Assembly (NCBI RefSeq): GCF_024502345.1
Contig: NZ_JALDNN010000001.1
Direction: 5' to 3' (one strand)
Length of the DNA stretch: 64,000 bases
Source: Escherichia coli
GTDB lineage: Bacteria > Pseudomonadota > Gammaproteobacteria > Enterobacterales > Enterobacteriaceae
A program made the position numbers and the translations under genes. Position 1 is the stretch's first letter. Every line of letters starts with the position of its first letter. This document shows, piece by piece, positions 1 to 27,434 of this stretch. Under the pieces are notes generated by a model, which had not been told where the DNA came from, did no database searches, and saw only the letters and a program-made list of their open reading frames with translations.

Positions 1-139
1 TCGCCTGGCTCATACAAGGCGTCTCCACCTCCAGCACTCCACGATCGGCAAAGAAACGACGGATCTCCGCCATAATCGCCGCGCGTTTTAATAAGTTAGG
101 AATGGATGCGCTCGGCTGCCAGGATGCCGTTTCGCTCAT
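1..139 (-). CDS. epmA: EF-P lysyltransferase EpmA (PoxA), N-terminal 46 codons only; the rest lies beyond the window start
   Basis: Reverse-complement from ATG at 137-139 translates [46 protein letters not shown], the EpmA N-terminus as I recall it; divergent to frdA as in E. coli. Confidence 0.8.
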
Positions 140-463
140 AGTTAAATCTCCAGTTTTTGACAAGGGCACGAAGTCTACTCGCAACGCGACGGCGAGACAA
201 ATTTTACGCAGGAATCAAACAACGGTGGGCAGTGACTAAAAAAAGCACGATCTGATGGTTTAGTAATTAAATTAATCATCTTCAGTGATAATTTAGCCCT
301 CTTGCGCACTAAAAAAATCGATCTCGTCAAATTTCAGACTTATCCATCAGACTATACTGTTGTACCTATAAAGGAGCAGTGGAATAGCGTTCGCAGACCG
401 TAACTTTCAGGCACTTACCCTGAAGTACGGGGCTGTGGGATAAAAACAATCTGGAGGAATGTC

Positions 464-2264
464 GTGCAAACCTTTCAAGCCGATCTTGCCATTGTAGGCG
501 CCGGTGGCGCGGGATTACGTGCTGCAATTGCTGCCGCGCAGGCAAATCCAAATGCAAAAATCGCACTAATCTCAAAAGTATACCCGATGCGTAGCCATAC
601 CGTTGCTGCAGAAGGGGGCTCCGCCGCTGTCGCGCAGGATCATGACAGCTTCGAATATCACTTTCACGATACAGTAGCGGGTGGCGACTGGTTGTGTGAG
701 CAGGATGTCGTGGATTATTTCGTCCACCACTGCCCAACCGAAATGACCCAACTGGAACTGTGGGGATGCCCATGGAGCCGTCGCCCGGATGGTAGCGTCA
801 ACGTACGTCGCTTCGGCGGCATGAAAATCGAGCGTACCTGGTTCGCCGCCGATAAGACCGGCTTCCATATGCTGCACACGCTGTTCCAGACCTCTCTGCA
901 ATTCCCGCAGATCCAGCGTTTTGACGAACATTTCGTGCTGGATATTCTGGTTGATGATGGTCATGTTCGCGGCCTGGTAGCAATGAACATGATGGAAGGC
1001 ACGCTGGTGCAGATCCGTGCTAACGCGGTCGTTATGGCTACTGGCGGTGCGGGTCGCGTTTATCGTTATAACACTAACGGCGGCATCGTTACCGGTGACG
1101 GTATGGGTATGGCGCTAAGCCACGGCGTTCCGCTGCGTGACATGGAATTCGTTCAGTATCACCCAACCGGTCTGCCAGGTTCCGGTATCCTGATGACCGA
1201 AGGCTGCCGCGGTGAAGGTGGTATTCTGGTCAACAAAAATGGCTACCGTTATCTGCAAGATTACGGCATGGGCCCGGAAACTCCGCTGGGCGAGCCGAAA
1301 AACAAATATATGGAACTGGGTCCACGCGACAAAGTTTCTCAGGCCTTCTGGCACGAATGGCGTAAAGGCAACACCATCTCCACGCCGCGTGGCGATGTGG
1401 TTTATCTCGACTTGCGTCACCTCGGCGAGAAAAAACTGCATGAACGTCTGCCGTTCATCTGCGAACTGGCGAAAGCGTACGTTGGCGTCGATCCGGTTAA
1501 AGAACCGATTCCGGTACGTCCGACCGCACACTACACCATGGGCGGTATCGAAACCGATCAGAACTGTGAAACCCGCATTAAAGGTCTGTTCGCCGTGGGT
1601 GAATGTTCCTCTGTTGGTCTGCACGGTGCAAACCGTCTGGGCTCCAACTCCCTGGCGGAACTGGTGGTCTTCGGCCGTCTGGCCGGTGAACAAGCGACAG
1701 AGCGTGCAGCAACTGCCGGTAATGGCAACGAAGCGGCAATTGAAGCGCAGGCAGCTGGCGTTGAACAACGTCTGAAAGATCTGGTTAACCAGGATGGTGG
1801 CGAAAACTGGGCGAAGATCCGCGACGAAATGGGCCTGGCAATGGAAGAAGGCTGCGGTATCTACCGTACGCCGGAACTGATGCAGAAAACCATCGACAAG
1901 CTGGCTGAGCTGCAGGAACGCTTCAAGCGCGTGCGCATCACCGACACTTCCAGCGTGTTCAACACCGACCTGCTCTACACCATTGAACTGGGCCACGGTC
2001 TGAACGTTGCTGAATGTATGGCGCACTCCGCAATGGCACGTAAAGAGTCCCGCGGCGCGCACCAGCGTCTGGACGAAGGTTGCACCGAGCGTGACGACGT
2101 CAACTTCCTCAAACACACCCTCGCCTTCCGCGATGCTGATGGCACGACTCGCCTGGAGTACAGCGACGTGAAGATTACTACGCTGCCGCCAGCTAAACGC
2201 GTTTACGGTGGCGAAGCGGATGCAGCCGATAAGGCGGAAGCAGCCAATAAGAAGGAGAAGGCGA

Positions 2265-2272
<8 letters not shown>
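464..2272 (+). CDS. frdA: fumarate reductase flavoprotein subunit
   Basis: 602-aa ORF with GTG start; N-terminal FAD-binding motif [14 protein letters not shown]; full-length match to E. coli FrdA from memory; heads the frdABCD operon. Confidence 0.95.
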
Positions 2273-3405
<1,133 letters not shown>

Positions 3406-3415
3406 GGAGCCTGAG

Positions 3416-4971
<1,556 letters not shown>

Positions 4972-5059
4972 AATTTCATCGGGTCCGAATTTTCGGACCT
5001 TTTCTCCGCTTTTCCTTGCTGTCATCTACACTTAGAAAAAAACCAGTAAGGAAACATTT

Positions 5060-5593
5060 ATGCGCCTGCTCCCTCTCGTTGCCGCAGCGACAGCTGCATT
5101 TCTGGTCGTTGCCTGCAGTTCTCCTACGCCGCCGCGTGGCGTGACCGTAGTGAATAATTTCGACGCTAAACGCTATCTCGGTACCTGGTATGAGATTGCC
5201 CGTTTTGATCACCGCTTTGAACGTGGACTGGAAAAAGTCACCGCAACATACAGCCTGCGTGATGACGGCGGCCTGAATGTCATTAATAAAGGCTATAACC
5301 CTGACAGAGGAATGTGGCAGCAGAGTGAAGGGAAAGCGTACTTTACCGGCGTACCAACTCGCGCTGCGCTGAAAGTGTCATTCTTTGGTCCTTTCTATGG
5401 CGGTTATAACGTCATTGCACTTGATCGGGAATACCGCCATGCGCTGGTTTGCGGCCCGGACCGCGACTACCTGTGGATACTCTCCCGCACGCCAACCATT
5501 TCTGACGAAGTGAAACAGGAGATGCTGGCAGTCGCGACCCGGGAAGGGTTTGATGTCAGTAAGTTTATTTGGGTACAGCAGCCCGGTAGTTAG
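5060..5593 (+). CDS. blc: outer membrane lipoprotein Blc (bacterial lipocalin)
   Basis: 177-aa ORF with lipobox LVVACSS and lipocalin motif [16 protein letters not shown]. Confidence 0.9.
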
Positions 5594-5907
5594 TGAGTGC
5601 TGAGTTTCAGACCAATAATCCCCAATACGATTAACGCCAGACTCGCCAGGCGCATCGGGTTAGCGGACTCACCGAGCAGTACAATGCCGGTGATGGCCGC
5701 GCCGACTGCGCCAATACCCGTCCACACGGCATAAGCCGTCCCTACTGGTAACGATTTCATCGCCCAGGCAAGTAGCGCCATACTGACAATCATCGCCGTC
5801 ACAGTAATAACACTCGGCGTCAAACGACTAAAGCCGTGGGTATATTTCAGGCCAACGGCCCATACCACTTCCAGCAGACCAGCAATAACTAAGATAATCC
5901 AGGACAT
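5590..5907 (-). CDS. gdx: guanidinium exporter Gdx (SugE), SMR family
   Basis: 105-aa ORF from [29 protein letters not shown]; the track ORF extends upstream but ATG at 5905-5907 gives the canonical protein. Confidence 0.9.
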
Positions 5908-5924
5908 ATCAGGCTCCGGAGAAT

Positions 5925-5971
5925 TGGGGCCGTCCCCGGTGAAAAGACGCGTTTGCAGGTCGTCCTGCAAA
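5925..5971 (-). promoter_or_regulatory. guanidine-II (mini-ykkC) riboswitch in the gdx leader
   Basis: Minus-strand reading shows two hairpins with ACGR tetraloops: TTGCAGG-ACGA-CCTGCAA (5953..5970) and GGGG-ACGG-CCCC (5926..5937), just upstream of the gdx start codon. Confidence 0.6.
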
Positions 5972-6081
5972 GCTGATGGTTGAACGGATATTTTGCCAGG
6001 TGGCAGGGGAATTTCAACTATTACCTTTGTGACTATCGCAGAGAAAACAAACGGCACGACACAGCTGTCGTACCGTTATTG

Positions 6082-6229
6082 CTTATTGCTGCGCTTTCGT
6101 TGCTGCACCAGAAATCGCGTTACCGCCATCAGAAATGTCTTCACCAACGCCACGCGTGGTGTTGCAGGCAGTTAATACTGTTGAAAGCACCAGAACAGAA
6201 AAGATCGCTGCAATTGTCTTCTTCACCAT
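6082..6229 (-). pseudogene. ecnB: entericidin B lipoprotein gene with apparent +1 frameshift
   Basis: ATG at 6227-6229 gives [16 protein letters not shown], then an extra A (CTTTCAAACAG) shifts frame to a stop after 29 codons; the +1 frame continues [32 protein letters not shown]-stop, the expected EcnB C-terminus with lipobox. Confidence 0.6.
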
Positions 6230-6275
6230 AACGTCTTCCTTTTAGGTAATGTTATTTATGTTTGCCTATAGCAAA

Positions 6276-6464
6276 TTAATAATAGACAACATCGCCAAAA
6301 ATGACGGAAATCTGATGATTTTTCGGAAGAGAAGAAAAATAGCTGGCAGCGCGAGAGATGGAGTTGCCGAGATGTTTGATGTCTTCGCCGAAACCGCGAG
6401 CGGTGTTACAGCCCGTGAGCAGCGTGCTGGCAAGCAAAACAAGAACGATAAGGCGTTTCATCAT
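6276..6464 (-). CDS. ecnA: entericidin A lipoprotein, C-terminally extended ORF (62 codons versus canonical 41)
   Basis: MMKRLIVLVLLASTLLTGCNTARGFGEDIKHLGNSISRAAS matches EcnA, but the expected stop position reads TAT and the ORF runs 21 more codons. Confidence 0.6.
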   Translation of the reverse strand: MMKRLIVLVLLASTLLTGCNTARGFGEDIKHLGNSISRAASYFSSLPKNHQISVIFGDVVYY

Positions 6465-6515
6465 CTCTGACCTGAATAAGTGATGGTGCAGCCTGCAGGC
6501 CGCACCATAACCGCA

Positions 6516-7082
6516 TTACTTCACGCGAGAGACGTATTCACCAGAGCGGGTATCCACTTTGATGACTTCGCCGATTTGTACGAACAGCGGAACTTTAACC
6601 ACAGCGCCAGTAGACAGGGTAGCCGGTTTGCCGCCAGTACCTGCGGTATCACCTTTCAGGCCCGGATCGGTATCAACGATTTCCAGTTCAACGAAGTTCG
6701 GCGGAGTAACGGAGATCGGCTGACCATTCCACAGAGTTACGATACACTCTGCCTGATCCAGCAGCCATTTAGCGTTATCGCCAATTGCTTTTGCATCAGC
6801 AGACAGCTGCTCGAAAGTTTCGTTGTTCATGAAGTGCCAGAACTCACCGTCGTTGTACAGGTAAGTCAGGTTCATATCGACAACATCAGCGCCTTCAGCG
6901 GAATCAGTAGATTTGAAGGTTTTTTCTACGCGAGTACCGGTCAGCAGACGACGCAGTTTAACGCGAGCAAATGCCTGGCCTTTACCCGGTTTTACGAATT
7001 CACTCGCTTCAACCGCGTAAGGTTCGCCGTCTAACATGATTTTAAGACCAGCACGAAAATCGTTGCTATAGTACGTTGCCAT
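6516..7082 (-). CDS. efp: elongation factor P
   Basis: 188-aa [52 protein letters not shown], including the modified-lysine loop KPGKG. Confidence 0.95.
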
Positions 7083-7123
7083 AAGGCCCTCTGAAATTTG
7101 TTAATTGGTAGCTAAGCCACAAA

Positions 7124-8152
7124 ATGGCGCATATTGTAACCCTAAATACCCCATCCAGAGAAGATTGGTTAACGCAACTTGCCGATGTTGTGACCGATCC
7201 TGATGAACTTCTGCGTCTTTTGAATATAGACGCGGACGAAAAACTGTTGGCCGGACGCAACGCCAAAAAGCTGTTTGCCCTGCGTGTGCCCCGCTCATTT
7301 ATCGATCGCATGGAGAAAGGCAATCCGGACGATCCGCTTTTGCGTCAGGTACTTACCTCGCAAGATGAGTTTGCCATCGCGCCCGGATTCTCCACCGACC
7401 CGCTGGAAGAACAGCACAGCGTAGTGCCTGGTTTGTTGCATAAATACCACAACCGGGCGCTTTTGCTGGTCAAAGGCGGCTGCGCGGTAAATTGCCGTTA
7501 TTGCTTCCGTCGCCACTTCCCTTATGCCGAAAATCAGGGCAACAAGCGTAACTGGCAAACTGCACTTGAGTATGTTGCTGCGCATCCGGAACTGGACGAG
7601 ATGATTTTCTCCGGCGGCGATCCGCTGATGGCGAAAGATCACGAGCTGGACTGGTTGCTCACACAACTGGAAGCCATCCCGCATATCAAACGTCTGCGGA
7701 TTCACAGCCGTCTGCCGATTGTGCTCCCGGCACGCATCACAGATGCGCTGGTTGAACGCTTTTCACATTCTACGCTGCAAATCTTGCTGGTGAATCACAT
7801 CAACCATGCCAATGAGGTAGATGAAACATTCCGGCAGGCGATGGCTAAGTTGCGCCGTGTCGGTGTCACCCTGCTTAACCAGAGCGTTCTGTTACGTGGT
7901 GTGAACGATAACGCACAAACGCTGGCAAACCTGAGTAATGCGTTGTTCGATGCCGGCGTGATGCCGTATTACCTGCATGTGCTCGATAAAGTACAGGGCG
8001 CGGCGCATTTTATGGTGAGTGATGACGAAGCACGGCAGATTATGCGTGAGTTGCTGACACTGGTGTCGGGATATCTGGTGCCGAAACTGGCGCGAGAAAT
8101 TGGCGGCGAACCCAGCAAAACGCCGCTGGATCTCCAGCTACGCCAGCAGTAA
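7124..8152 (+). CDS. epmB: EF-P beta-lysylation enzyme EpmB (lysine 2,3-aminomutase-like radical SAM)
   Basis: 342-aa ORF with radical-SAM cysteine motif CAVNCRYCFRR; divergent from efp. Confidence 0.9.
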   Translation: MAHIVTLNTPSREDWLTQLADVVTDPDELLRLLNIDADEKLLAGRNAKKLFALRVPRSFIDRMEKGNPDDPLLRQVLTSQDEFAIAPGFSTDPLEEQHSVVPGLLHKYHNRALLLVKGGCAVNCRYCFRRHFPYAENQGNKRNWQTALEYVAAHPELDEMIFSGGDPLMAKDHELDWLLTQLEAIPHIKRLRIHSRLPIVLPARITDALVERFSHSTLQILLVNHINHANEVDETFRQAMAKLRRVGVTLLNQSVLLRGVNDNAQTLANLSNALFDAGVMPYYLHVLDKVQGAAHFMVSDDEARQIMRELLTLVSGYLVPKLAREIGGEPSKTPLDLQLRQQ

Positions 8153-8184
8153 CTGATTAAACAGGGAAGTCAAACATTAAAATT

Positions 8185-8285
<101 letters not shown>

Positions 8286-8546
8286 GAGCAACATACGCAA
8301 GTACAGCAACCTGTCATTAAACTGGGAAATTTAATCTTTGCCCGTTGCATAACCTTTAATTATTCATATACATTGCTGTTGTTACTCTTTATATAGCTAA
8401 CACCAATAATTAACCTTTCTTTTCTGTTTATATAGAGTGAGCACGGCTACTTATGTTATTTTAACAACTATTATTACCAAGCCCATTCATCTGGCTTATA
8501 AATTAAAATTAATTATTTAATTGAGAAATGGTTAGGGAGAACCTAC

Positions 8547-9416
8547 ATGGCCATAAGCATCAAGGGTGTTAATACCGGTGTTATTCGCAAGAGTAATAAT
8601 TTCATTGCACTGGCGCTGAAAATTAAGGAACCTCGCAATAAAGAATCGTTGTTCTTTATGTCTGTCATGGAACTGCGCGACCTGCTGATTGCGCTGGAAA
8701 GTCGTCTGCATCAAAAGCATAAACTGGATGCTGCTGCACGCCTTCAGTATGAGCAAGCTCGCGATAAAGTCATTAAGAAAATGGCAGAAAATATCCCAGA
8801 AATTCTGGTTGATGAGCTTAAAAATGCCGATATTAATCGTCGGGTTAACACGCTGGAACTTACCGATAATCAAGGCGAAAATCTTACCTTCGTATTAACG
8901 CTACATGACGGTAGCAAATGTGAGTTAGTCGTCAATGAGTTGCAGATTGAAATGCTGGCGCGAGCAATCATTCATGCAATTAATAATGCAGAAATGCGCG
9001 AACTGGCATTACGTATTACCTCACTGTTAGATTTCCTGCCGTTATACGACGTTGACTGCCAGGAAAATGGCAATCTGGAATATGACACCTATTCCCAACC
9101 GGAATGGAAACATAACTTGTTCGACCATTATCTGGCGGTGCTTTACCGCTTTAAAGATGAAAGTGGCAAAGAACAATTTAGCGGCGCAGTGGTGAAAACG
9201 CGTGAAGCAACGCCGGGTAAAGAAATAGAGGCGATCACTCGCCGAATGCTTGATTTCAGCCCACGACTGAAAAAACTCGCGGGTGTGCCATGTCAGGTCT
9301 ATGTTCGCACCGTAGCGGCGAATAACGCCCAACCGCTAACCCAGGATCAATGCTTACGCGCGCTGCATCACTTACGTGTTCAATCCACCAGCAAAACTGC
9401 ACCACAGGCGAAATAA
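8547..9416 (+). CDS. yjeJ: uncharacterized protein YjeJ
   Basis: 289-aa ORF in the conserved position between epmB and yjeI; AT-rich upstream region. Confidence 0.75.
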   Translation: MAISIKGVNTGVIRKSNNFIALALKIKEPRNKESLFFMSVMELRDLLIALESRLHQKHKLDAAARLQYEQARDKVIKKMAENIPEILVDELKNADINRRVNTLELTDNQGENLTFVLTLHDGSKCELVVNELQIEMLARAIIHAINNAEMRELALRITSLLDFLPLYDVDCQENGNLEYDTYSQPEWKHNLFDHYLAVLYRFKDESGKEQFSGAVVKTREATPGKEIEAITRRMLDFSPRLKKLAGVPCQVYVRTVAANNAQPLTQDQCLRALHHLRVQSTSKTAPQAK

Positions 9417-9483
9417 TCTCATCTTTGCTAATGCGAGGCTGGAGCCATCCAGCCTGAAATGACTGATAACGTGATCGTTGGTC

Positions 9484-9578
<95 letters not shown>

Positions 9579-9608
9579 TCTGGCAATTATACGTTTGTCA
9601 CCATCACA

Positions 9609-9962
9609 TCAGTTCGGACACTTATATACCTGGCCGATAATCTGGCTATCCGTCGGGACAAAACTGGACAACATTCCCTGCGACGGGCTACTGATGCCAT
9701 AAATCACGTTACCGCCCATTGCAGCCGCCTGGTTGCGCAGATCGTTTGCTGCGCCGCGCATAGAACCACCTTCTTCTCCGTGTTGCCCGGAAAGCCAGTT
9801 GCTTTGCTTACCTGTCGCAGTACCAATCAGCTGGCACTCTGCGCCTGGCTGCTCGTCCACAATGCGTACACTCTGACCGGCAGCACTCAATTCGTTGCTG
9901 GAGCTACAACCCGCCATCAGTAGCGCGGCACCGACAATCCCTGCTAAGTATTTTACGTGCAT
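9609..9962 (-). CDS. yjeI: lipoprotein YjeI (DUF4156)
   Basis: 117-aa ORF from MHVKYLAGIVGAALLMAGCSSS with lipobox LMAGC; the track ORF starts 11 codons upstream. Confidence 0.8.
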   Translation of the reverse strand: MHVKYLAGIVGAALLMAGCSSSNELSAAGQSVRIVDEQPGAECQLIGTATGKQSNWLSGQHGEEGGSMRGAANDLRNQAAAMGGNVIYGISSPSQGMLSSFVPTDSQIIGQVYKCPN

Positions 9963-10039
9963 GTTATTCCCCATAATCAATGAGCTGGACGCCACTCGCG
10001 TCGTCCGTGTCTGAATCTTATACTAGAAAGATGACCAAA

Positions 10040-10078
10040 AGAAAAACCCCCAGACATTTCTGCCCGGGGGTTTGTTTA
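10040..10078 (-). terminator. groSL operon terminator
   Basis: Minus-strand CCCCCGGGCAG-AAATGT-CTGGGGG followed by TTTTTCTTTT, immediately after the groL stop. Confidence 0.6.
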
Positions 10079-10099
10079 TTTCTGCGAGGTGCAGGGCAA

Positions 10100-11758
<1,659 letters not shown>

Positions 11759-11789
11759 TTAAATTCGTATGTTCAGTGTCGTGCGAGGA

Positions 11790-12134
<345 letters not shown>

Positions 12135-12159
12135 TTACGTGGTTTCCCGGCTGGTGACT

Positions 12160-12195
12160 AGAGAAATGGGGATGAGGATTCGCCCCTTCAAGGGG
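12160..12195 (-). promoter_or_regulatory. sigma32 heat-shock promoter of groSL
   Basis: Minus-strand TTTCCCCCTTGAAGGGGCGAATCCTCATCCCCATTTCTC contains -35 CTTGAA and -10 CCCCATTT with 15-bp spacing, matching the sigma32 consensus. Confidence 0.7.
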
Positions 12196-12358
12196 GAAAA
12201 AGAAAAAAAATTCTGATCAGCACAAAATCGGGTGAAAACCCTGATTCACCTCACATTTCATCGCAATTTCTTCATCGCCGTCATAAGCGAATCTGATTGT
12301 GCTACCATCGAAAATCTACGCAGTTGCCCAAAATTTGGGCGCAATCGGATATCAACCC

Positions 12359-13615
12359 ATGAGTGGACTCAAACAAGAACTGGGGCTGGCCCAGGGCATT
12401 GGCCTGCTATCGACGTCATTATTAGGCACCGGCGTGTTTGCCGTTCCTGCGTTAGCTGCACAGGTAGCAGGCAATAACAGCCTGTGGGCGTGGCCCGTTT
12501 TGATTATCTTAGTGTTCCCGATTGCGATTGTGTTTGCGATTCTGGGTCGCCACTATCCCAGCGCAGGCGGTGTCGCGCACTTCGTCGGTATGGCGTTTGG
12601 TTCGCGGCTTGAGCGAGTCACCGGCTGGTTGTTTTTATCGGTCATTCCCGTGGGTTTGCCTGCCGCGCTACAAATTGCCGCCGGGTTCGGCCAGGCAATG
12701 TTTGGCTGGCATAGCTGGCAACTGTTGTTGGCAGAACTCGGTACGCTGGCGTTGGTGTGGTATATCGGTACTCGCGGTGCCAGTTCCAGTGCAAATCTAC
12801 AAACCGTTATTGCCGGACTTATCGTCGCACTGATTGTCGCTATCTGGTGGGCGGGCGATATCAAACCTGCGAGTATCCCCTTCCCCGCGCCAATAAATAT
12901 CGAACTTACCGGGTTATTTGCTGCGTTATCAGTGATGTTCTGGTGTTTTGTCGGTCTTGAAGCATTTGCCCATCTTGCCTCGGAATTTAAAAATCCAGAA
13001 CGTGATTTTCCTCGTGCTTTGATGATTGGTCTGCTGCTGGCAGGATTAGTCTACTGGGGCTGTACGGTAGTCGTCTTACACTTCGACGCCTATGGTGAAC
13101 AAATGGCGGCGGCAGCATCGCTTCCAAAAATTGTAGTGCAACTGTTCGGAGTAGGAGCGTTATGGATTGCCTGCGTGATTGGCTATCTGGCCTGCTTTGC
13201 CAGTCTCAACATTTATATACAGAGCTTCGCCCGTCTGGTCTGGTCGCAGGCGCAACATAATCCTGACCACTACCTCGCACGCCTCTCTTCTCGCCATATC
13301 CCGAATAATGCCCTCAATGCGGTGCTCGGCTGCTGCGTGGTGAGCACGCTGGTGATTCATGCTTTAGAGATCAATCTGGACGCTCTTATTATTTATGCCA
13401 ATGGCATCTTTATTATGATTTATCTGTTATGCATGCTGGCAGGCTGTAAATTATTGCAAGGACGTTATCGACTACTGGCGGTCGTTGGCGGGCTGTTATG
13501 CGTTCTGTTACTGGCAATGGTCGGCTGGAAAAGTCTCTATGCGCTGCTCATGCTGGCGGGGTTATGGCTGTTTTTGCCAAAACGAAAAACGCCGGAAAAT
13601 GGCATAACCACATAA
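12359..13615 (+). CDS. yjeH: amino-acid exporter YjeH (APC superfamily)
   Basis: 418-aa polytopic membrane ORF from MSGLKQELGLAQGIGLLSTSLLGTGVF; the track ORF begins 20 codons upstream. Confidence 0.85.
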   Translation: MSGLKQELGLAQGIGLLSTSLLGTGVFAVPALAAQVAGNNSLWAWPVLIILVFPIAIVFAILGRHYPSAGGVAHFVGMAFGSRLERVTGWLFLSVIPVGLPAALQIAAGFGQAMFGWHSWQLLLAELGTLALVWYIGTRGASSSANLQTVIAGLIVALIVAIWWAGDIKPASIPFPAPINIELTGLFAALSVMFWCFVGLEAFAHLASEFKNPERDFPRALMIGLLLAGLVYWGCTVVVLHFDAYGEQMAAAASLPKIVVQLFGVGALWIACVIGYLACFASLNIYIQSFARLVWSQAQHNPDHYLARLSSRHIPNNALNAVLGCCVVSTLVIHALEINLDALIIYANGIFIMIYLLCMLAGCKLLQGRYRLLAVVGGLLCVLLLAMVGWKSLYALLMLAGLWLFLPKRKTPENGITT

Positions 13616-13630
13616 TCCGGCGTTTCGACA

Positions 13631-14107
13631 TTAATCCTGGCGATCGTCTTTATGATCAAGGCGGTCGCGGTCATCATCCTTTCGCTGGTACTCACCATCA
13701 AAAGTATTACCGCCACCGGTCCCGGCGCTAAAACCGCCGCCTGGCATACGAGAAAAGCGCAAATGCGGCATCAACTTCACTGTCAGATGCTTTTGCACCG
13801 GCGGCAATAAAAGCAGAAGACCGAGGAAGTCGGTGAAAAAGCCCGGTAATAAAAGCAGCAAACCGGCAATGATCAGCGAAACACTTTTAATCATCTCCGC
13901 CGCTGGGTTTTCACCCGCCGCCATTTTTTGCTGCATCAGCACGAAATTCTTAAAGCCCTGGTTACGTACCAGTGACATACCGATAACTGACGTGAATATA
14001 ACCAGCACGAGGGTCAGCAATACCCCCAATACATGGGCAACCTGAATAAAGATTGAAATCTCAATATAGACATAAAGGAAAATGGCAATAAAAGGTAACC
14101 AGCGCAA
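13631..14107 (-). CDS. fxsA: FxsA inner membrane protein (F-exclusion of phage T7 suppressor)
   Basis: 158-aa ORF MRWLPFIAIFLYVYIEISIFIQVAHVLGV with acidic C-terminal tail. Confidence 0.9.
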   Translation of the reverse strand: MRWLPFIAIFLYVYIEISIFIQVAHVLGVLLTLVLVIFTSVIGMSLVRNQGFKNFVLMQQKMAAGENPAAEMIKSVSLIIAGLLLLLPGFFTDFLGLLLLLPPVQKHLTVKLMPHLRFSRMPGGGFSAGTGGGNTFDGEYQRKDDDRDRLDHKDDRQD

Positions 14108-14443
14108 AGGTTTCTCCTGTAATAGCAGCCGGTAAAACCCGGCTACCTGAATGGGTTGCGAATCGCGTTCAGCTTATATTGTGGTCATTAGCAAAATTTC
14201 AAGATGTTTGCGCAACTATTTTTGGTAGTAATCCCAAAGCGGTGATCTATTTCACAAATTAATAATTAAGGGGTAAAAACCGACACTTAAAGTGATCCAG
14301 ATTACGGTAGAAATCCTCAAGCAGCATATGATCTCGGGTATTCGGTCGATGCAGGGGATAATCGTCGGTCGAAAAACATTCGAAACCACATATATTCTGT
14401 GTGTTTAAAGCAAATCATTGGCAGCTTGAAAAAGAAGGTTCAC

Positions 14444-15880
14444 ATGTCAAACAACATTCGTATCGAAGAAGATCTGTTGGGTACCAGGGAAGTTCCAGCT
14501 GATGCCTACTATGGTGTTCACACTCTGAGAGCGATTGAAAACTTCTATATCAGCAACAACAAAATCAGTGATATTCCTGAATTTGTTCGCGGTATGGTAA
14601 TGGTTAAAAAAGCCGCAGCTATGGCAAACAAAGAGCTGCAAACCATTCCTAAAAGTGTAGCGAATGCCATCATTGCCGCATGTGATGAAGTCCTGAACAA
14701 CGGAAAATGCATGGATCAGTTCCCGGTAGACGTCTACCAGGGCGGCGCAGGTACTTCCGTAAACATGAACACCAACGAAGTGCTGGCCAATATCGGTCTG
14801 GAACTGATGGGTCACCAGAAAGGTGAATATCAGTACCTGAACCCGAACGACCATGTTAACAAATGTCAGTCCACTAACGACGCCTACCCGACCGGTTTCC
14901 GTATCGCAGTTTACTCTTCCCTGATTAAGCTGGTAGATGCGATTAACCAACTGCGTGAAGGCTTTGAACGTAAAGCTGTCGAATTCCAGGACATCCTGAA
15001 AATGGGGCGTACCCAGCTGCAGGACGCAGTACCGATGACCCTCGGTCAGGAATTCCGCGCTTTCAGCATCCTGCTGAAAGAAGAAGTGAAAAACATCCAA
15101 CGTACCGCTGAACTGCTGCTGGAAGTTAACCTTGGCGCAACAGCAATCGGTACTGGTCTGAACACGCCGAAAGAGTACTCTCCGCTGGCAGTGAAAAAAC
15201 TGGCTGAAGTTACTGGCTTCCCATGCGTACCGGCTGAAGACCTGATCGAAGCGACCTCTGACTGCGGCGCTTATGTTATGGTTCACGGCGCGCTGAAACG
15301 CCTGGCTGTGAAGATGTCCAAAATCTGTAACGACCTGCGCTTGCTCTCTTCTGGTCCACGTGCCGGCCTGAACGAGATCAACCTGCCGGAACTGCAGGCG
15401 GGCTCTTCCATCATGCCAGCTAAAGTAAACCCGGTTGTTCCGGAAGTGGTTAACCAGGTATGCTTCAAAGTCATCGGTAACGACACCACTGTTACCATGG
15501 CAGCAGAAGCAGGTCAACTGCAGTTGAACGTTATGGAGCCGGTCATTGGCCAGGCTATGTTCGAATCCGTTCACATTCTGACCAACGCTTGCTACAACCT
15601 GCTGGAAAAATGCATTAACGGCATCACTGCTAACAAAGAAGTGTGCGAAGGTTACGTTTACAACTCTATCGGTATCGTTACTTACCTGAACCCGTTCATC
15701 GGTCACCACAACGGTGACATCGTGGGTAAAATCTGTGCCGAAACCGGTAAGAGTGTACGTGAAGTCGTTCTGGAACGCGGTCTGTTGACTGAAGCGGAAC
15801 TTGACGATATTTTCTCCGTACAGAATCTGATGCACCCGGCTTACAAAGCAAAACGCTATACTGATGAAAGCGAACAGTAA
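14444..15880 (+). CDS. aspA: aspartate ammonia-lyase
   Basis: 478-aa ORF from [30 protein letters not shown]; fumarase/aspartase signature [11 protein letters not shown]. Confidence 0.95.
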
Positions 15881-15900
15881 TCGTACAGGGTAGTACAAAT

Positions 15901-15932
15901 AAAAAAGGCACGTCAGATGACGTGCCTTTTTT
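15901..15932 (+). terminator. aspA terminator
   Basis: AAAAAAGGCACGTCA-GATGACGTGCCTTTTTT perfect hairpin with flanking A and T runs. Confidence 0.85.
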
Positions 15933-15997
15933 CTTGTGAGCAGTAACTTAAAAATAACAATCTAATATCAACTTGTTAAAAAACAAGGAAGGCTAAT

Positions 15998-17299
15998 ATG
16001 CTAGTTGTAGAACTCATCATAGTTTTGCTGGCGATCTTCTTGGGCGCCAGATTGGGGGGAATAGGTATTGGTTTTGCAGGCGGATTGGGGGTGCTGGTTC
16101 TTGCCGCTATTGGCGTTAAACCCGGTAACATCCCGTTCGATGTCATTTCCATTATCATGGCGGTTATCGCCGCTATTTCTGCCATGCAGGTTGCTGGCGG
16201 TCTGGACTATCTGGTTCATCAGACAGAAAAGCTGCTGCGCCGTAACCCGAAATACATCACGATCCTCGCACCGATCGTGACCTATTTCCTGACTATCTTT
16301 GCTGGTACTGGCAACATCTCTCTGGCGACACTGCCAGTTATCGCTGAAGTTGCGAAGGAACAAGGCGTTAAACCTTGCCGTCCGCTGTCTACTGCAGTGG
16401 TATCCGCGCAGATTGCGATCACCGCATCGCCAATCTCAGCGGCAGTGGTTTACATGTCTTCCGTGATGGAAGGTCATGGCATCAGCTACCTCCATCTGCT
16501 CTCCGTGGTCATCCCGTCCACCCTGCTGGCGGTTCTGGTGATGTCCTTCCTGGTCACTATGCTGTTCAACTCCAAACTCTCTGACGATCCGATTTATCGC
16601 AAGCGTCTGGAAGAGGGCCTGGTTGAACTGCGCGGTGAAAAGCAGATTGAAATCAAATCCGGTGCAAAAACGTCCGTCTGGCTGTTCCTGCTGGGCGTAG
16701 TTGGCGTGGTTATCTATGCAATCATCAACAGCCCAAGCATGGGTCTGGTTGAAAAACCGCTGATGAACACCACCAACGCAATCCTGATCATCATGCTCAG
16801 CGTTGCAACTCTGACCACTGTTATCTGTAAAGTTGATACCGACAACATCCTCAACTCCAGCACCTTCAAAGCAGGTATGAGCGCCTGTATTTGTATCCTG
16901 GGTGTTGCGTGGCTGGGCGATACTTTCGTTTCCAACAACATCGACTGGATCAAAGATACCGCTGGTGAAGTGATTCAGGGTCATCCGTGGCTGCTGGCCG
17001 TCATCTTCTTCTTTGCTTCTGCTCTGCTGTACTCTCAGGCTGCAACCGCAAAAGCACTGATGCCGATGGCTCTGGCACTGAACGTTTCTCCGCTGACCGC
17101 TGTTGCTTCTTTCGCTGCGGTGTCTGGTCTGTTCATTCTGCCGACCTACCCGACGCTGGTTGCTGCGGTACAGATGGATGACACGGGTACTACCCGTATC
17201 GGTAAATTCGTCTTCAACCATCCGTTCTTCATCCCGGGTACTCTGGGTGTTGCCCTGGCCGTTTGCTTCGGCTTCGTGCTGGGTAGCTTCATGCTGTAA
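15998..17299 (+). CDS. dcuA: anaerobic C4-dicarboxylate transporter DcuA
   Basis: 433-aa polytopic membrane ORF MLVVELIIVLLAIFLGARLGGIGIGFAGG directly after aspA. Confidence 0.95.
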   Translation: MLVVELIIVLLAIFLGARLGGIGIGFAGGLGVLVLAAIGVKPGNIPFDVISIIMAVIAAISAMQVAGGLDYLVHQTEKLLRRNPKYITILAPIVTYFLTIFAGTGNISLATLPVIAEVAKEQGVKPCRPLSTAVVSAQIAITASPISAAVVYMSSVMEGHGISYLHLLSVVIPSTLLAVLVMSFLVTMLFNSKLSDDPIYRKRLEEGLVELRGEKQIEIKSGAKTSVWLFLLGVVGVVIYAIINSPSMGLVEKPLMNTTNAILIIMLSVATLTTVICKVDTDNILNSSTFKAGMSACICILGVAWLGDTFVSNNIDWIKDTAGEVIQGHPWLLAVIFFFASALLYSQAATAKALMPMALALNVSPLTAVASFAAVSGLFILPTYPTLVAAVQMDDTGTTRIGKFVFNHPFFIPGTLGVALAVCFGFVLGSFML

Positions 17300-17308
17300 T
17301 GACCAATC

Positions 17309-17335
17309 GCGGGGCGTTCACGCCCCGCTTTCTTT
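17309..17335 (+). terminator. dcuA terminator
   Basis: GCGGGGCG-TTCA-CGCCCCGC hairpin followed by TTTCTTT. Confidence 0.8.
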
Positions 17336-17414
17336 CCCGCCGACTAACATCCTTCCCCCGTCCGTTGTATAGTGACCTCTCTCTTGCGGTTCCATCTGTT
17401 CTTGCGAGGTGTTT

Positions 17415-17753
17415 ATGCTTGATGAAAAAAGTTCGAATACCGCGTCTGTCGTGGTGCTATGTACCGCACCGGATGAAGCGACAGCCCAGGATTTAGCCGC
17501 CAAAGTGCTGGCGGAAAAACTGGCGGCCTGCGCGACCTTGATCCCCGGCGCTACCTCTCTCTATTACTGGGAAGGTAAGCTGGAGCAAGAATACGAAGTG
17601 CAGATGATTTTAAAAACTACCGTATCTCACCAGCAGGCACTGCTGGAATGCCTGAAGTCTCATCATCCATATCAAACCCCGGAACTTCTGGTTTTACCTG
17701 TTACACACGGAGACACAGATTACCTCTCATGGCTCAACGCATCTTTACGCTGA
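17415..17753 (+). CDS. cutA: divalent-cation tolerance protein CutA
   Basis: 112-aa ORF from [31 protein letters not shown]; an alternative GTG two codons upstream is in the ORF track. Confidence 0.9.
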
Positions 17754-19426
17754 TCCTGCTACTTTGCAGCACTTCCGTTTTTGCCGGATTATTCGACGCG
17801 CCGGGACGTTCACAATTTGTCCCCGCGGATCAAGCCTTTGCTTTTGATTTTCAGCAAAACCAACATGACCTGAATCTGACCTGGCAGATCAAAGACGGTT
17901 ACTACCTCTACCGTAAACAGATCCGCATTACGCCGGAACACGCGAAAATTGCCGACGTGCAGCTGCCGCAAGGCGTCTGGCATGAAGATGAGTTTTACGG
18001 CAAAAGCGAGATTTACCGCGATCGGCTGACGCTTCCCGTAACCATCAACCAGGCGAGTGCGGGAGCGACGTTAACTGTCACCTACCAGGGCTGTGCTGAT
18101 GCCGGTTTCTGTTATCCGCCAGAAACCAAAACCGTTCCGTTAAGCGAAGTGGTCGCCAACAACGCAGCGCCACAGCCTGTGTCTGTTCCGCAGCAAGAGC
18201 AGCCCACCGCGCAATTGCCCTTTTCCGCGCTCTGGGCGTTGTTGATCGGTATTGGTATCGCCTTTACGCCATGCGTGCTGCCAATGTACCCACTGATTTC
18301 TGGCATCGTGCTGGGCGGTAAACAGCGGCTCTCCACTGCCAGAGCATTGTTGCTGACCTTTATTTATGTGCAGGGGATGGCGCTGACCTACACGGCGCTG
18401 GGTCTGGTGGTTGCCGCCGCAGGGTTACAGTTCCAGGCGGCGCTACAGCACCCATACGTGCTCATTGGCCTCGCTATCGTCTTTACCTTGCTGGCGATGT
18501 CAATGTTTGGCTTGTTTACTCTACAACTCCCCTCCTCGCTGCAAACGCGCCTCACGCTGATGAGCAATCGCCAACAGGGCAGCTCACCCGGCGGAGTGTT
18601 TATTATGGGGGCGATTGCCGGACTGATCTGTTCACCATGCACCACCGCACCGCTTAGCGCGATTCTGCTGTATATCGCCCAAAGCGGGAACATGTGGCTG
18701 GGCGGCGGCACGCTTTATCTCTATGCGTTGGGCATGGGCCTGCCGCTGATGCTAATTACCGTCTTTGGTAACCGCTTGCTGCCGAAAAGCGGCCCGTGGA
18801 TGGAACAAGTCAAAACCGCGTTTGGTTTTGTGATCCTCGCACTGCCGGTCTTCCTGCTGGAGCGAGTGATTGGTGATATATGGGGATTACGCTTGTGGTC
18901 GGCGCTGGGTGTCGCATTCTTTGGCTGGGCCTTTATCACCAGCCTACAGGCCAAACGCGGCTGGATGCGCGTGATGCAAATAATCCTGCTGGCAGCGGCA
19001 TTGGTTAGCGTGCGCCCACTTCAGGATTGGGCATTTGGTGCGACGCATACCGCGCAAACTCAGACGCATCTCAACTTTACACAAATCAAAACGGTAGATG
19101 AGTTAAATCAGGCGCTCGTTGAAGCCAAAGGCAAATCGGTGATGTTAGATCTTTATGCCGACTGGTGCGTCGCCTGTAAAGAGTTTGAGAAATACACCTT
19201 CAGCGACCCGCAGGTGCAAAAAGCGTTAGCAGACACGGTCTTACTTCAGGCCAACGTCACGGCCAACGACGCACAAGATGTGGCGCTGTTAAAGCATCTT
19301 AATGTCCTTGGCCTACCGACAATTCTCTTTTTTGACGGACAAGGCCAGGAGCATCCACAAGCACGCGTCACGGGCTTTATGGATGCTGAAACCTTCAGCG
19401 CACATTTGCGCGATCGCCAACCGTGA
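17729..19426 (+). CDS. dsbD: thiol:disulfide interchange protein DsbD
   Basis: 565-aa ORF from [19 protein letters not shown]; C-terminal thioredoxin-like CVAC motif ([10 protein letters not shown]); overlaps the cutA 3-prime end. Confidence 0.95.
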
Positions 19427-19462
19427 ACGACACTTGCAGTGGGAAAGACGGAGGAAAATAGC

Positions 19463-20038
19463 GTGCAACGTGAAGATGTACTGGGAGAAGCCCTGAAATT
19501 ATTAGAATTACAAGGGATTGCCAACACCACGCTGGAGATGGTTGCTGAACGTGTGGATTATCCACTGGACGAGCTGCGCCGCTTCTGGCCAGACAAAGAG
19601 GCAATCCTCTACGATGCGCTGCGTTATCTTAGCCAACAGATAGATGTCTGGCGTCGTCAGCTGATGCTGGACGAAACGCAAACCGCCGAACAAAAGCTGC
19701 TGGCACGTTATCAGGCGTTATCGGAGTGCGTTAAAAACAACCGCTATCCGGGCTGTCTATTTATCGCTGCCTGTACGTTTTATCCCGATCCTGGCCACCC
19801 TATTCATCAACTGGCCGATCAGCAAAAAAGCGCGGCCTACGATTTCACCCACGAACTGTTAACCACGCTGGAAGTTGACGATCCGGCGATGGTAGCAAAG
19901 CAGATGGAACTGGTGCTGGAAGGATGCCTGAGCCGGATGCTGGTGAATCGTAGCCAGGCGGATGTCGACACTGCACATCGGCTGGCGGAAGATATCCTGC
20001 GCTTCGCCCGCTGCCGCCAGGGTGGCGCATTGACCTGA
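19463..20038 (+). CDS. yjdC: TetR-family transcriptional regulator YjdC
   Basis: 191-aa ORF from GTG at 19463 ([31 protein letters not shown]), N-terminal TetR HTH; alternative upstream ATG at 19439. Confidence 0.8.
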
Positions 20039-20144
20039 CAGAAACACAGAAAAGAAGCGATTTGCCGCAATCTTAAGCAGTTGAATCGCTTTTACTGAAA
20101 TTAGGTTGACGAGATGTGCAGATTACGGTTTAATGCGCCCCGTT

Positions 20145-20220
20145 GCCCGGATAGCTCAGTCGGTAGAGCAGGGGATTGAAAATCCCCGTGTCCTTGGTTC
20201 GATTCCGAGTCCGGGCACCA
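20145..20220 (+). tRNA. pheU: tRNA-Phe (GAA anticodon)
   Basis: 76-nt GCCCGGATAGCTCAGTCGGTAGAGCAGGGGATTGAAAATCCCCGTGTCCTTGGTTCGATTCCGAGTCCGGGCACCA with anticodon loop TTGAAAA and 3-prime CCA; position after yjdC corresponds to pheU. Confidence 0.97.
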
Positions 20221-21071
20221 ATATTCATAAGGCCTCGCTGCAAAGCGGGGCTTTTTCCTTTTCTGGCTACGGTAGATTTCTGGTCGTTGCGGCACGTTAT
20301 TTGTTTGCTGGATTTCTCGCCATTTTCGCAGTTGTTCGTTACTTTTAGACACCTCAACATCCTTTGATGTACCTTTTCCTAACCTCACAGCTACGGTCTT
20401 TCTACGGTCCTCTACGATTCCTTTCTCTCAGAGCATTCATAATAAAGTAGAAAATACGGGGAAAACGGGGGAATTATCATTTCGCCCTAATCCGCAGGTC
20501 TTAACGTGATTTTGTCGCGGGGAATAAGGTGGGGAAATCCCCAATAGCAAGCGGGGAAATCTGGCAGCATACCCCCTCCACCATTCACATGGGGATCTTC
20601 ACCAGTCCGTCCACCTACAACAAGCTCTTCTTGCCCTTTCACTTCTTACCGTTTTCAGAATCCCCCGTTCTCCACGCCATCATAAAATGATTTATCCGTA
20701 AGCTTAACGTAATGGACTGTTGAACCTGAGTGTCCGCTGTGAGCGAAAAGCGGAACTTCTCACATAGGTAATGAAGCGTTTCCTAACGTCAGGGTGTACT
20801 AATCAACGAAGAGCAGGTCAGAGGACTCGAACCGCTTTCCTCTTCCATCTACGTAGAATTCCAAGAATTTATGTGCTTTCCAGTTACAATTTAGCCATGC
20901 TAAGTTAGAAAAAGCATTGAGTACCTTAGGATTGTATCGATGATACTCTAAGGATCTTGGAGGCTTGTGAGGCGTAAGGTTCAAAGCCAATAGTTTATTA
21001 ATAGTCACACAAGTGGCTCTATTTTTCGCCTACAAACCTATATTTTTCATACAAATAAAAGAAGTGTATTT

Positions 21072-22490
21072 ATGAATACTCAGCAAATTAAGGTTGGCAG
21101 TGTACCTGAAATTATTGAGCTATTACCAAACTCTAGCGAGCAGGCTGATTCTCATCCTTTCATCCTATCGGCAAACAGTGCATGGGGTGAACAGGGAGCA
21201 GAAATATCAATAGAGAGATTACGCCAAAATATCGAGCCTTGGCTAACAGCTCTCTTCCAATCCGAACATTTAAATTTATTGATAGGTGCGGGTTTAAGCA
21301 CGTCTATTCAAATATCGGCTACAGATTCACCTCCAGCTGGAATGGGTTGGATCAGCGATCTAGCCGTATGTAAAAGTGAAATAGATGCATTTTCTACTCT
21401 GGCTGCCAAAGCTGCAGGTCGCGATAACGGAAATATAGAAGATCAAATTAGAGCTATTAATGAACTTATTAAAGGGCTTGAAATTCTGACAGTGTTGAAT
21501 ACCCCTCAACCTGAAAATCCTCCAGCTCCTCATGCTGCTTATAGAAATCTAAAAACGGATTTAGAAATACTCAAGGGAGAGCTTTCTCGCTGCCTAGGTG
21601 AGTTTTCAAGATCTGTGAGTGCCGGAGAATACTTGATTAAAACTGCTGAACCAAAGCGTAAAGAGGAAACTTTCAACTATCTAGTTAGTTTCTTGATGAG
21701 CTTTGCAAGTAGGACCGCTACTCGCGATAGGTTGCATATTTTTACAACAAACTATGATCGCATTATTGAAGTAGGTGCTGAGCTTGCTGGTTTGAGACTT
21801 ATAGATCGCTTTGTAGGAAGTATCGCTCCAGTGTTTCGATCTTCAAGATTGGAGGTTGATTATCACTATAATCCTCCAGGAATTCGTGGCGAACCAAGAT
21901 ATTTAGAAGGCGTAGCGCGTTTTACTAAGCTTCATGGATCCCTTGATTGGCATGAACAAAATAGCGCGATTAGGCGCTTTGGTTTACCTTTTGGAGCACG
22001 TTCTGTTGAACCTTTTTTAGAAGCTGAAGGCCATCAAAGCAACAGCTTTGAACAACTTATGATTTACCCTAACTCAGTAAAAGATAGAGAAACTGCCGAG
22101 TACCCTTATGTTGAGCTATTTCGAGATCTAGCCGCAGCAACTAGCCGCCCAAATAGCACATTAGTCACCTATGGCTATAGCTTTGGTGATGAGCATATCA
22201 ACAGGGTAATTGAAGACATGCTTACAGTGCCTTCGACTCATGTAGTCATAATTGCCTTCGGAGATCCGCTTGGAAGAATCATAAATTTCATTAATAAGAG
22301 TGGAAGAAAAGCACAGATCACCCTATTAATGGGAGACCATTTAGGAGACCTCAAGACTTTAGTTGATAACTATTTACCTAAACCAGCTATTGATAAAGCA
22401 TCAATAAAAATGACTGAATTGCTTAAGCAAAGAGGATTTATCCAGCCCAAAGAATTAGGTAATTCAACTGGCTCCGAGGTATCACAATGA
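21072..22490 (+). CDS. SIR2-like NADase component of a SIR2-HerA anti-phage system
   Basis: 472-aa ORF with SIR2-family motifs GAGLS (in LLIGAGLSTS), TTNYD (in HIFTTNYDRII) and HGS (in TKLHGSLDW); translationally coupled to the downstream HerA-like gene. Confidence 0.8.
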   Translation: MNTQQIKVGSVPEIIELLPNSSEQADSHPFILSANSAWGEQGAEISIERLRQNIEPWLTALFQSEHLNLLIGAGLSTSIQISATDSPPAGMGWISDLAVCKSEIDAFSTLAAKAAGRDNGNIEDQIRAINELIKGLEILTVLNTPQPENPPAPHAAYRNLKTDLEILKGELSRCLGEFSRSVSAGEYLIKTAEPKRKEETFNYLVSFLMSFASRTATRDRLHIFTTNYDRIIEVGAELAGLRLIDRFVGSIAPVFRSSRLEVDYHYNPPGIRGEPRYLEGVARFTKLHGSLDWHEQNSAIRRFGLPFGARSVEPFLEAEGHQSNSFEQLMIYPNSVKDRETAEYPYVELFRDLAAATSRPNSTLVTYGYSFGDEHINRVIEDMLTVPSTHVVIIAFGDPLGRIINFINKSGRKAQITLLMGDHLGDLKTLVDNYLPKPAIDKASIKMTELLKQRGFIQPKELGNSTGSEVSQ

Positions 22491-24520
22491 GTTACTTACC
22501 AATAGAAAGATTAGAACAATTAAGAATTGGATCTGTTGGATTTGTATCACCTAATGAAATTAGAGTTTCTTTAGAGATTGACTCCCCTGATTCAGTGTCA
22601 CTTCAAGGCGGTTCCCCCCGCAATTTTCCTCGAATAAATAGTTATGTACTGATCAGTAGCGATGATGGATTTCTCGTCGGACAGGTTGAATGGATTGCCG
22701 TAGAACACTCTCCATACCCCAAAAGAAGAGGCTTACAAGATTTTGGCTTGATAGATCTTCCTTTTCCACTTAAAAAGCTCAGTATCAATCCCGTTGGTAC
22801 TTTGAGAGTCGATAGAAAAAACGAAGATTACAAGTTCACAAGAGGAACAGATGCTTTTCCCTCGGTTGGTGACTCCGTGCTCCTGCCTACTGACCGGCAA
22901 TTAAAATCAATAATAGAATCAGGTGACAATAGAAGAGTAAAAATAGGGGACAGCCCCCTAGCTAACAATGCGGAAATAAAAGTGGACCCTGATAGGCTTT
23001 TTGGACGACATTTAGCTGTTTTGGGCAATACAGGTAGTGGTAAATCATGCTCGGTTGCGGGGTTAATTCAATGGTCTTTAGATGCTGTTTTACAACAGGG
23101 ACAGATTCCAAATGCTCGGTTCATAATACTTGATCCAAATGGAGAATACAGTAGGGCATTCGGCCCAGAATCAAAATACAAGGGTAAGCTATTACGTGTA
23201 GAAGCTAACACTGGTGCTGAAGAGATAGATCTTAAAGTTCCGTCATGGTTATGGAATAGCTCTGAGTGGGGTGCTTTCACTCAAGCGAGTTCAAAAGTTC
23301 AACTTCCTTTACTACGCCGAGCTTTGAGGGCGATGAGAAATGATGTTTTATCAGAAGATGATGTGACAATCCAAGCGAAACACTTCTGCGGTATCCTACT
23401 CGTATCCATACGACAATTATCAAGCCAAGGCCAGATATATGTGAATGGCGGCCATGCCAAAGGTTTCGTTGATAGTTTAACGTCTTGGAATAATAGCCTG
23501 TCCACATTAAACGACAAAATCGATAACAAACCTTTCGATAATCTAATAAACACGATGAATGTGTATCTTTCCTCTCGTATAGGAATAAAATGGCCTGAAA
23601 AACCTGAAGTTTCAGATACTGATCAGTTGATTAATGAATTAAAAAATGCATATGAAACGCTTGGAGGTGATGAACAAGGACTTCTTCCAAAAAGTGAAGA
23701 TTCGCCTATTCGTTTTAAAGGGGATGATTTTGTCGCATACCTAGAAGCTCTAGCTCAAGAGACAGGCACAGAGCAATTCGTTGAATTCCTTTTGACTCGT
23801 ATTCGAACAATGCTAGGTGACACCCGTATAAGTGCAGTAACAAATGATTCGGAACAGCCTATCAGTTTAACTAATTGGTTAGACACTTTTCTCGGTAGAG
23901 ATGGACAAGGTTCCATAACTGTTATCGATTTATCGCTAGTCCCTAATGAAATAATACATTTGGTAACTGCTGTAATTTCCAGAGTAACTTTTGAAGCATT
24001 ACAACGTTATCGAAGACTTAAGGGGAAACCACTACCAACAGTTATGGTTGCAGAAGAAGCGCATACATTTATTAAACGCTACAAAGAAGATAGTGAGGGT
24101 CAGTCAGTCTCTGACGTATGCTGCAAAGTGTTTGAAAAGATCGCACGTGAAGGCAGGAAATTTGGGTTAGGTCTTGTAGTTTCTTCCCAACGACCCTCAG
24201 AGCTATCTCCGACTGTGTTATCTCAATGTAATACTTTTTTGTTGCACAGGATTAGTAATGATAGAGATCAAGAGCAAGTCCATAGACTTGTTCCCGATAA
24301 CATGAGGGGGTTGTTGAGGGAGTTGCCATCGCTACCATCTCGGCATGCCATTCTACTAGGATGGGCTTCTGAACTTCCGGTTTTAGTTAGAATGAAAGAG
24401 CTTACTGAAAAACAAAGACCACAATCTGACGATCCCGATTTTTGGGATGTGTGGTCTAACACTACAGAAGAGCCTCGCGAAGTTAATTGGCAACCAATAG
24501 CTGATGATTGGCAAAGTTAA
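22487..24520 (+). CDS. HerA-like FtsK/HerA-family ATPase of the SIR2-HerA system
   Basis: 677-aa ORF with Walker A GNTGSGKS, Walker B MVAEEAH and SSQRPSEL region; start overlaps the SIR2 stop (ATGA). Confidence 0.8.
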   Translation: MSYLPIERLEQLRIGSVGFVSPNEIRVSLEIDSPDSVSLQGGSPRNFPRINSYVLISSDDGFLVGQVEWIAVEHSPYPKRRGLQDFGLIDLPFPLKKLSINPVGTLRVDRKNEDYKFTRGTDAFPSVGDSVLLPTDRQLKSIIESGDNRRVKIGDSPLANNAEIKVDPDRLFGRHLAVLGNTGSGKSCSVAGLIQWSLDAVLQQGQIPNARFIILDPNGEYSRAFGPESKYKGKLLRVEANTGAEEIDLKVPSWLWNSSEWGAFTQASSKVQLPLLRRALRAMRNDVLSEDDVTIQAKHFCGILLVSIRQLSSQGQIYVNGGHAKGFVDSLTSWNNSLSTLNDKIDNKPFDNLINTMNVYLSSRIGIKWPEKPEVSDTDQLINELKNAYETLGGDEQGLLPKSEDSPIRFKGDDFVAYLEALAQETGTEQFVEFLLTRIRTMLGDTRISAVTNDSEQPISLTNWLDTFLGRDGQGSITVIDLSLVPNEIIHLVTAVISRVTFEALQRYRRLKGKPLPTVMVAEEAHTFIKRYKEDSEGQSVSDVCCKVFEKIAREGRKFGLGLVVSSQRPSELSPTVLSQCNTFLLHRISNDRDQEQVHRLVPDNMRGLLRELPSLPSRHAILLGWASELPVLVRMKELTEKQRPQSDDPDFWDVWSNTTEEPREVNWQPIADDWQS

Positions 24521-27379: not shown

Positions 27380-27434
27380 TAACAGAAAAGCAGAGGCAAG
27401 TGCCCCTGCTTTTTTTTTACTGTTCAGCCATCAG

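Follow-up and report, generated by a model that had tools for sequence, protein, structure and literature searches.

The 64,000-nt stretch of Escherichia coli DNA analysed here (the window; contig NZ_JALDNN010000001.1) carries a normal entericidin locus in which the ecnA stop codon has lost one A, so that the ecnA reading frame runs to 62 codons beside an intact ecnB. This is very probably a genuine, vertically inherited 1-bp deletion. EcnB is a proposed bacteriolytic lipoprotein toxin, and EcnA a proposed antidote lipoprotein.

Organization of the locus

The minus strand between positions 6040 and 6520 of the window contains the end of efp, two small open reading frames (ORFs) and a terminator-like hairpin. 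From comparison of the window ORFs with the annotated loci of K-12 MG1655 and strain 06-00048, the small ORFs are ecnA and then ecnB, in tandem on the same strand and flanked by efp and sugE. The upstream neighbour efp (elongation factor P; 6516..7082, minus strand) was assigned from its 188-aa ORF and the annotation of the syntenic K-12 and 06-00048 loci, and the downstream neighbour sugE (SMR efflux; 5590..5907, minus strand) from the ORF listing and synteny with annotated loci. Just 3’ of ecnB, the promoter/terminator scan located the hairpin and its T-run (6050..6077, minus strand), a 12-pair stem followed by TGTTTTCTCT.

Used as a query, the 481-bp locus found matches in 5,424 of the 5,426 complete RefSeq E. 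coli genomes, and the genes annotated under these matches were ecnA (lipoprotein antitoxin entericidin A), ecnB (lipoprotein toxin entericidin B) and efp. The locus is the ordinary chromosomal efp-ecnA-ecnB-sugE arrangement of E. coli, originally described by Bishop et al. (1998, as cited in PMC7296081). In K-12 MG1655 and the best-matching strain, 06-00048, ecnA spans 126 nt (41 aa) and ecnB 147 nt (48 aa); these annotations, together with the NCBIfam profiles, bear out the protein lengths given in the initial annotation of this DNA. In the window, the EcnB product has the canonical 48 residues, and the EcnA product has 62 instead of 41.

Loss of one A from the ecnA stop codon

The extended ecnA ORF (6276..6464, minus strand) comprises 62 codons and a TAA stop, and was identified by the ORF listing and by its matches to NF007319 and PF08085; its product is MMKRLIVLVLLASTLLTGCNTARGFGEDIKHLGNSISRAASYFSSLPKNHQISVIFGDVVYY. 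Codons 1-41 (6342..6464, minus strand) are the canonical part, encoding the signal peptide, the lipobox L-T-G-C with Cys19 (...LLTG-C19 in the translation) and the 23-residue mature peptide, and this protein segment is identical to K-12 EcnA (WP_000977757.1). The former stop codon (6339..6341, minus strand) now reads TAT and encodes Tyr42, as indicated by the gap column in the alignment, the BLAST indel against K-12 and in silico repair. Where K-12 has GCC AGC TAA TTTTTC, the window has GCC AGC TAT TTT TC, the sole gap falling in alignment column 181; one A of the K-12 TAA has thus been deleted (GCCAGCTAATTTTT to GCCAGCTATTTTT). BLAST against K-12 places the indel at window position 6340. Since the T5 run is unchanged, the event is the loss of one A of the stop codon and not a substitution, and restoring this A in silico yields the 41-aa protein again. 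Apart from the stop-codon gap, ecnA and ecnB are collinear in the three-way alignment with K-12 and 06-00048.

The initial annotation had reported that ecnA retains its canonical 41 residues, reads TAT at the stop position and continues to 62 codons, and the alignment confirms this account and attributes it to the single deleted A. The same annotation had raised the possibility that the locus is simply that of K-12, which holds for the EcnB protein (one silent base apart) and does not hold for ecnA.

Downstream of the former stop, the 21-codon C-terminal extension YFSSLPKNHQISVIFGDVVYY (6279..6341, minus strand) is, by translation, what in K-12 forms the spacer between ecnA and ecnB. The new reading ends TAT TAT TAA, with the TAA stop (6276..6278, minus strand) lying 46 nt upstream of the ecnB ATG (at 6229). 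The product matches the NCBIfam EcnA equivalog NF007319 with 113.1 bits (cut-off 86) over residues 1-41 only (profile positions 1-41), and Pfam PF08085 with 25.3 bits (cut-off 23.3) up to residue 40; with the profile matches ending at residues 41 and 40, the 21-residue extension has no match in NCBIfam or Pfam. The extension is mildly hydrophobic (GRAVY +0.24, versus -0.47 for the canonical mature peptide). The 62-aa ORF is still an orthologue of ecnA, in the form of a variant allele.

The toxin gene ecnB is intact

In the six-frame ORF listing, ecnB (6083..6229, minus strand) is an uninterrupted ORF of 48 codons followed by TAA, and the alignment and the protein match agree with this reading. 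Against both K-12 MG1655 and strain 06-00048, the three-way alignment contains no indel in ecnB; the one difference from K-12 is a silent third-position change (GGT versus GGC), and the protein is identical. Its 48-aa product reproduces canonical EcnB exactly, a sequence present on more than 1,000 contigs, and it matches the NCBIfam EcnB equivalog NF007487 over its full length (1-48 of 48; 121.9 bits, cut-off 94) as well as Pfam PF08085 (30.2 bits, cut-off 23.3).

The frameshift that had been claimed for ecnB, with a stop after 29 codons, is therefore absent: the ORF is intact and without an indel relative to K-12. A one-base miscount reproduces the claimed ORF. An extra T introduced in silico into the TTT run at 6184..6186 brings a stop after exactly 29 codons, and translating by hand with an additional A in the neighbouring AA also gives 29 codons and keeps the 16-letter prefix that had been read, indicating that a short homopolymer had been miscounted. 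The lipobox LTAC, which had been assigned to the shifted remainder, is indeed encoded, though in the frame of ecnB itself (...VLTA-C22, the L-T-A-C motif with Cys22). With the gene intact, neither a true loss or alteration nor a homopolymer sequencing error, the two options that had been offered, applies to ecnB; the frameshift was a reading error, and there is no toxin-gene loss to record.

Distribution of the stop-loss allele

The exact 62-aa protein occurs on 119 contigs (225 index blocks), whose sources are NCBI genomes, JGI/IMG, Logan and ENA metagenome assemblies, and the gene context on these contigs is always efp-ecnA-ecnB-sugE. Near-identical variants of the 62-aa protein exist as well, carrying T14A, V54I (in the extension) or an alternative start. 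Five carriers with differing flanking SNP haplotypes have the same deletion. Compared with the window over ~6.2 kb, four full-length carrier loci show 0, 4, 22 and 59 substitutions; the one with none is NCBI assembly GCA_050032135.1 (100% identical over 6,189 bp), and all four are identical to the window from 5948 to 6508, deletion included. The carrier L004 (GCA_053255715.1) matches window 3000..9600 at 100% in three blocks, which are split by two ~100-nt stretches replacing 429 and 671 bp (around epmB and blc/ampC) that may be scaffold gaps.

The deletion was found in none of the 5,426 complete RefSeq E. coli genomes: the best match of the 481-nt query among them (99.6%) has a 482-nt span with the extra base still present, and a 61-nt probe across the deletion had no full-length 100% match. 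A 41-nt probe centred on the deletion also had no match in the complete E. coli genomes, a result given little weight since low-complexity masking of its T/C-rich right half may explain it by leaving no 28-nt seed. The stop-loss allele is rare. For the core region (window 1..25000), the best matches among the 5,426 complete genomes are strains cS33a and fM51a (human, Malawi) at 99.1%, with K-12 at 98.7%; a best match of just 99.1% indicates that the lineage is poorly represented among complete genomes, despite at least 119 draft and metagenome carrier contigs. A Shigella origin, considered as a reason for the absence from the E. coli set, is not supported, because the DNA past tRNA-Phe matches ordinary E. 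coli islands and a plasmid. A literature search for a described ecnA stop-loss allele or pseudogene found none. The allele already exists, unnamed, in public assemblies, and it is an ordinary allelic variant of a known system.

The ecnB promoter and the expected consequence of the extension

The ecnB promoter is described in the PMC5389655 text on this gene as sigma-38-dependent in vitro and as reportedly under OmpR control, with OmpR sites overlapping the pause region. In that account, the initially transcribed region of ecnB contains a -10-like pause element (at least five matches to TGcTATA(A/C)T); an adenine occupies +5, and pausing occurs at +17/+18. Set against this description, the window sequence suggests that the -10-like pause motif at the ecnB transcript start is TGCTATAGG (6265..6273, minus strand), and that the sigma-S -10 element of the promoter is cTATTAT (6279..6285, minus strand), bases also read as the final two Tyr codons of the extension. 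The ecnB +1 would accordingly lie near 6271 and the -10 at 6284..6279, positions derived by fitting the PMC5389655 description, and not a mapped coordinate, to TGCTATAGG. On the same mapping, the new ecnA TAA would fall in the discriminator of the ecnB promoter, ~5 nt before the ecnB transcription start. Between the putative -10 element and the ecnB ATG, the alignment shows no difference from K-12. Because the extended ORF would end upstream of the ecnB start, expression of ecnB from its own promoter should be untouched if the mapping is right. The deletion lies ~69 nt upstream of the presumed start and may have a small effect on the upstream promoter geometry.

No convincing terminator was found between ecnA and ecnB, the scan giving only a weak 5-pair hairpin (6306..6293). 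Disturbance of an intrinsic ecnA-ecnB terminator by the deletion was considered and rejected, as only 0.2 kcal/mol separates the MFE folds of the two alleles.

In the sequence of events that we propose, ribosomes would pass the former ecnA stop, translate 21 codons of previously intergenic DNA and halt at the TAA in the -10/discriminator region of the ecnB promoter, so that the longer translation would be confined to read-through transcripts from ecnA. EcnA keeps its signal peptide, its lipobox and the canonical mature peptide of 23 residues unchanged, and the ecnB Shine-Dalgarno sequence, 5’ leader, presumed sigma-S promoter core and terminator are unaltered. The extended EcnA precursor is predicted to be still exported and lipidated, and the tail, which is mildly hydrophobic, would lengthen mature EcnA from 23 to 44 residues. 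In K-12, ecnA is dispensable (the Keio deletion mutant is viable), and the toxin-antitoxin model of entericidins is debated (PMC7296081); according to Bishop et al. (1998, summarised in PMC7296081), overproduced EcnB causes lysis, an effect offset by ecnA in cis. Since ecnA is dispensable and the model debated, an altered or weakened EcnA is expected to be tolerated. The phenotypic effect is probably small, neutral to mildly loss-of-function for EcnA.

Alternative explanations for the deletion

For ecnA, the initial annotation had left the choice between a true alteration and a homopolymer sequencing error. If a base had been dropped beside the T5 run, the true genome would have TAA and a 41-aa EcnA. 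The site is an AA dinucleotide adjoining TTTTT, a context in which some platforms drop bases; the absence of the variant from all 5,426 complete genomes is in keeping with such an artefact, and an error copied from a shared reference is a possible source of a common deletion. Against this, the 119 contigs come from four independent sources and include short-read metagenome assemblies, and the deletion is tied to related haplotypes instead of being randomly scattered, while no complete genome of any lineage has it. Nor does the assembly appear error-prone. Over the 20.2-kb collinear core, the window differs from K-12 by only three indels, of which the one in ecnA is the sole coding one, the other two lying at 9602, where 10 bp are deleted between genes, and at 20222, the island junction; with so few, the assembly is not indel-prone, and a generally faulty assembly was rejected as an explanation. 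Together, the 119 contigs, the several flanking haplotypes and the lack of any other coding indel in 20 kb make a sequencing error very unlikely and support a true alteration of ecnA.

Granted that the deletion is real, it could also matter functionally: the tail might alter the antidote activity or stability of EcnA, or the 1-bp change might shift the upstream spacing of the ecnB promoter, and in either case the stationary-phase balance of toxin and antidote would shift. At 44 residues, the mature peptide would be almost twice as long as the canonical one of 23, with a tail more hydrophobic than the latter, the allele is old enough to occupy haplotypes ~1% apart, and the deletion lies upstream of a promoter that the PMC5389655 text describes as sigma-S-dependent in vitro and reports to be under OmpR control. 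We nevertheless regard such a shift as unlikely, because there is no sign of selection on the extension, which is promoter DNA read as codons and varies with haplotype (V54I), because the allele is rare, because ecnA knock-outs are viable and the toxin-antitoxin model is questioned (PMC7296081), and because ecnB keeps its core promoter, leader and coding sequence unaltered. That the 44-residue EcnA is a stable functional neo-variant, or that the upstream change retunes toxin expression, is likewise improbable; if true, stationary-phase lysis or the formation of outer-membrane vesicles would be altered in this lineage, which would offer a natural allele for testing the disputed toxin/antidote model. 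A programmed or phase-variable EcnA C-terminus, arising by slippage in the A2/T5 tracts or by +1 ribosomal frameshifting at the wild-type stop, is scarcely credible. In K-12, the +1 frame that begins right behind the ecnA stop is open through the extension, as such switching would need, but the tracts are much too short for frequent slipped-strand variation, no complete genome is switched, the carriers are related haplotypes and, reasoning from the sequence, the P-site codon AGC has no re-pairing in the +1 frame (GCU). Inheritance of a simple stop-codon deletion remains the preferred reading.

Other features of the window

The 10-bp deletion relative to K-12 at position 9602 (CAGCCTCTGG) lies between yjeI and yjeJ, a few bases past the yjeI stop. 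Collinearity with K-12 ends at 20229, and past tRNA-Phe (pheU) a mosaic genomic island (20230..64000) replaces the K-12 cadCBA region. By annotated E. coli matches, the island contains a SIR2-family and ATP-binding gene pair, several tyrosine integrases, DUF927 and DUF262 proteins, a type I restriction-modification system, a 5-fold beta-flower protein, and a phosphoethanolamine transferase with an outer-membrane protein. Neither half of this region is covered to at least 80% by any complete RefSeq E. coli genome. From ~52600 to 64000, the window holds a heavy-metal module with two P-type ATPases, CueR, a Cd/Pb-responsive regulator, a CDF transporter and an ArsR/SmtB regulator, which over 11.4 kb shows 100% identity to pMB18183_1, a plasmid carried by E. 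coli strain 44 (a blood isolate from Houston). The presence of this module in a chromosomal pheU island suggests recent plasmid-chromosome exchange.

Comparison with known entericidin loci and stop-loss alleles

The ecnA allele has little significance beyond annotation, where pipelines will report either a 62-aa “entericidin” or an ecnA pseudogene in this lineage. It is usable as a lineage marker, and as a natural C-terminal variant of EcnA beside an intact EcnB it offers a ready comparison for asking whether EcnB is neutralised by EcnA, as the questioned model holds (PMC7296081).

The K-12 ecnAB locus (EcnA WP_000977757.1, EcnB WP_000239596.1) has the same position between efp and sugE and is 98.8% identical to the window over the 481 bp. 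The EcnB protein, EcnA residues 1-41, and the ecnB leader, Shine-Dalgarno sequence and putative -10 element are identical in the two; ecnB has a single silent substitution, and three others fall in the spacer or beyond the end of ecnB. The EcnA precursor has 41 aa in K-12 and 62 aa here, where one A of the TAA is deleted. The public carriers of the 62-aa EcnA (among them GCA_050032135.1 contig JBAOUX010000007.1, GCA_023599245.1, ENA ERZ27268317 and ERZ28571495) encode the identical protein in an ecn locus without differences, and their flanking SNPs differ except in GCA_050032135.1; in the searched collection, these records have no protein name or accession. More generally, stop-loss alleles of small bacterial genes arise by the same kind of single-base stop-codon indel and extend to the next in-frame intergenic stop. 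Unlike in such alleles at large, the new stop here lies inside the presumed promoter of the downstream paralogue, so that the extension should be unable to enter the ecnB transcript.
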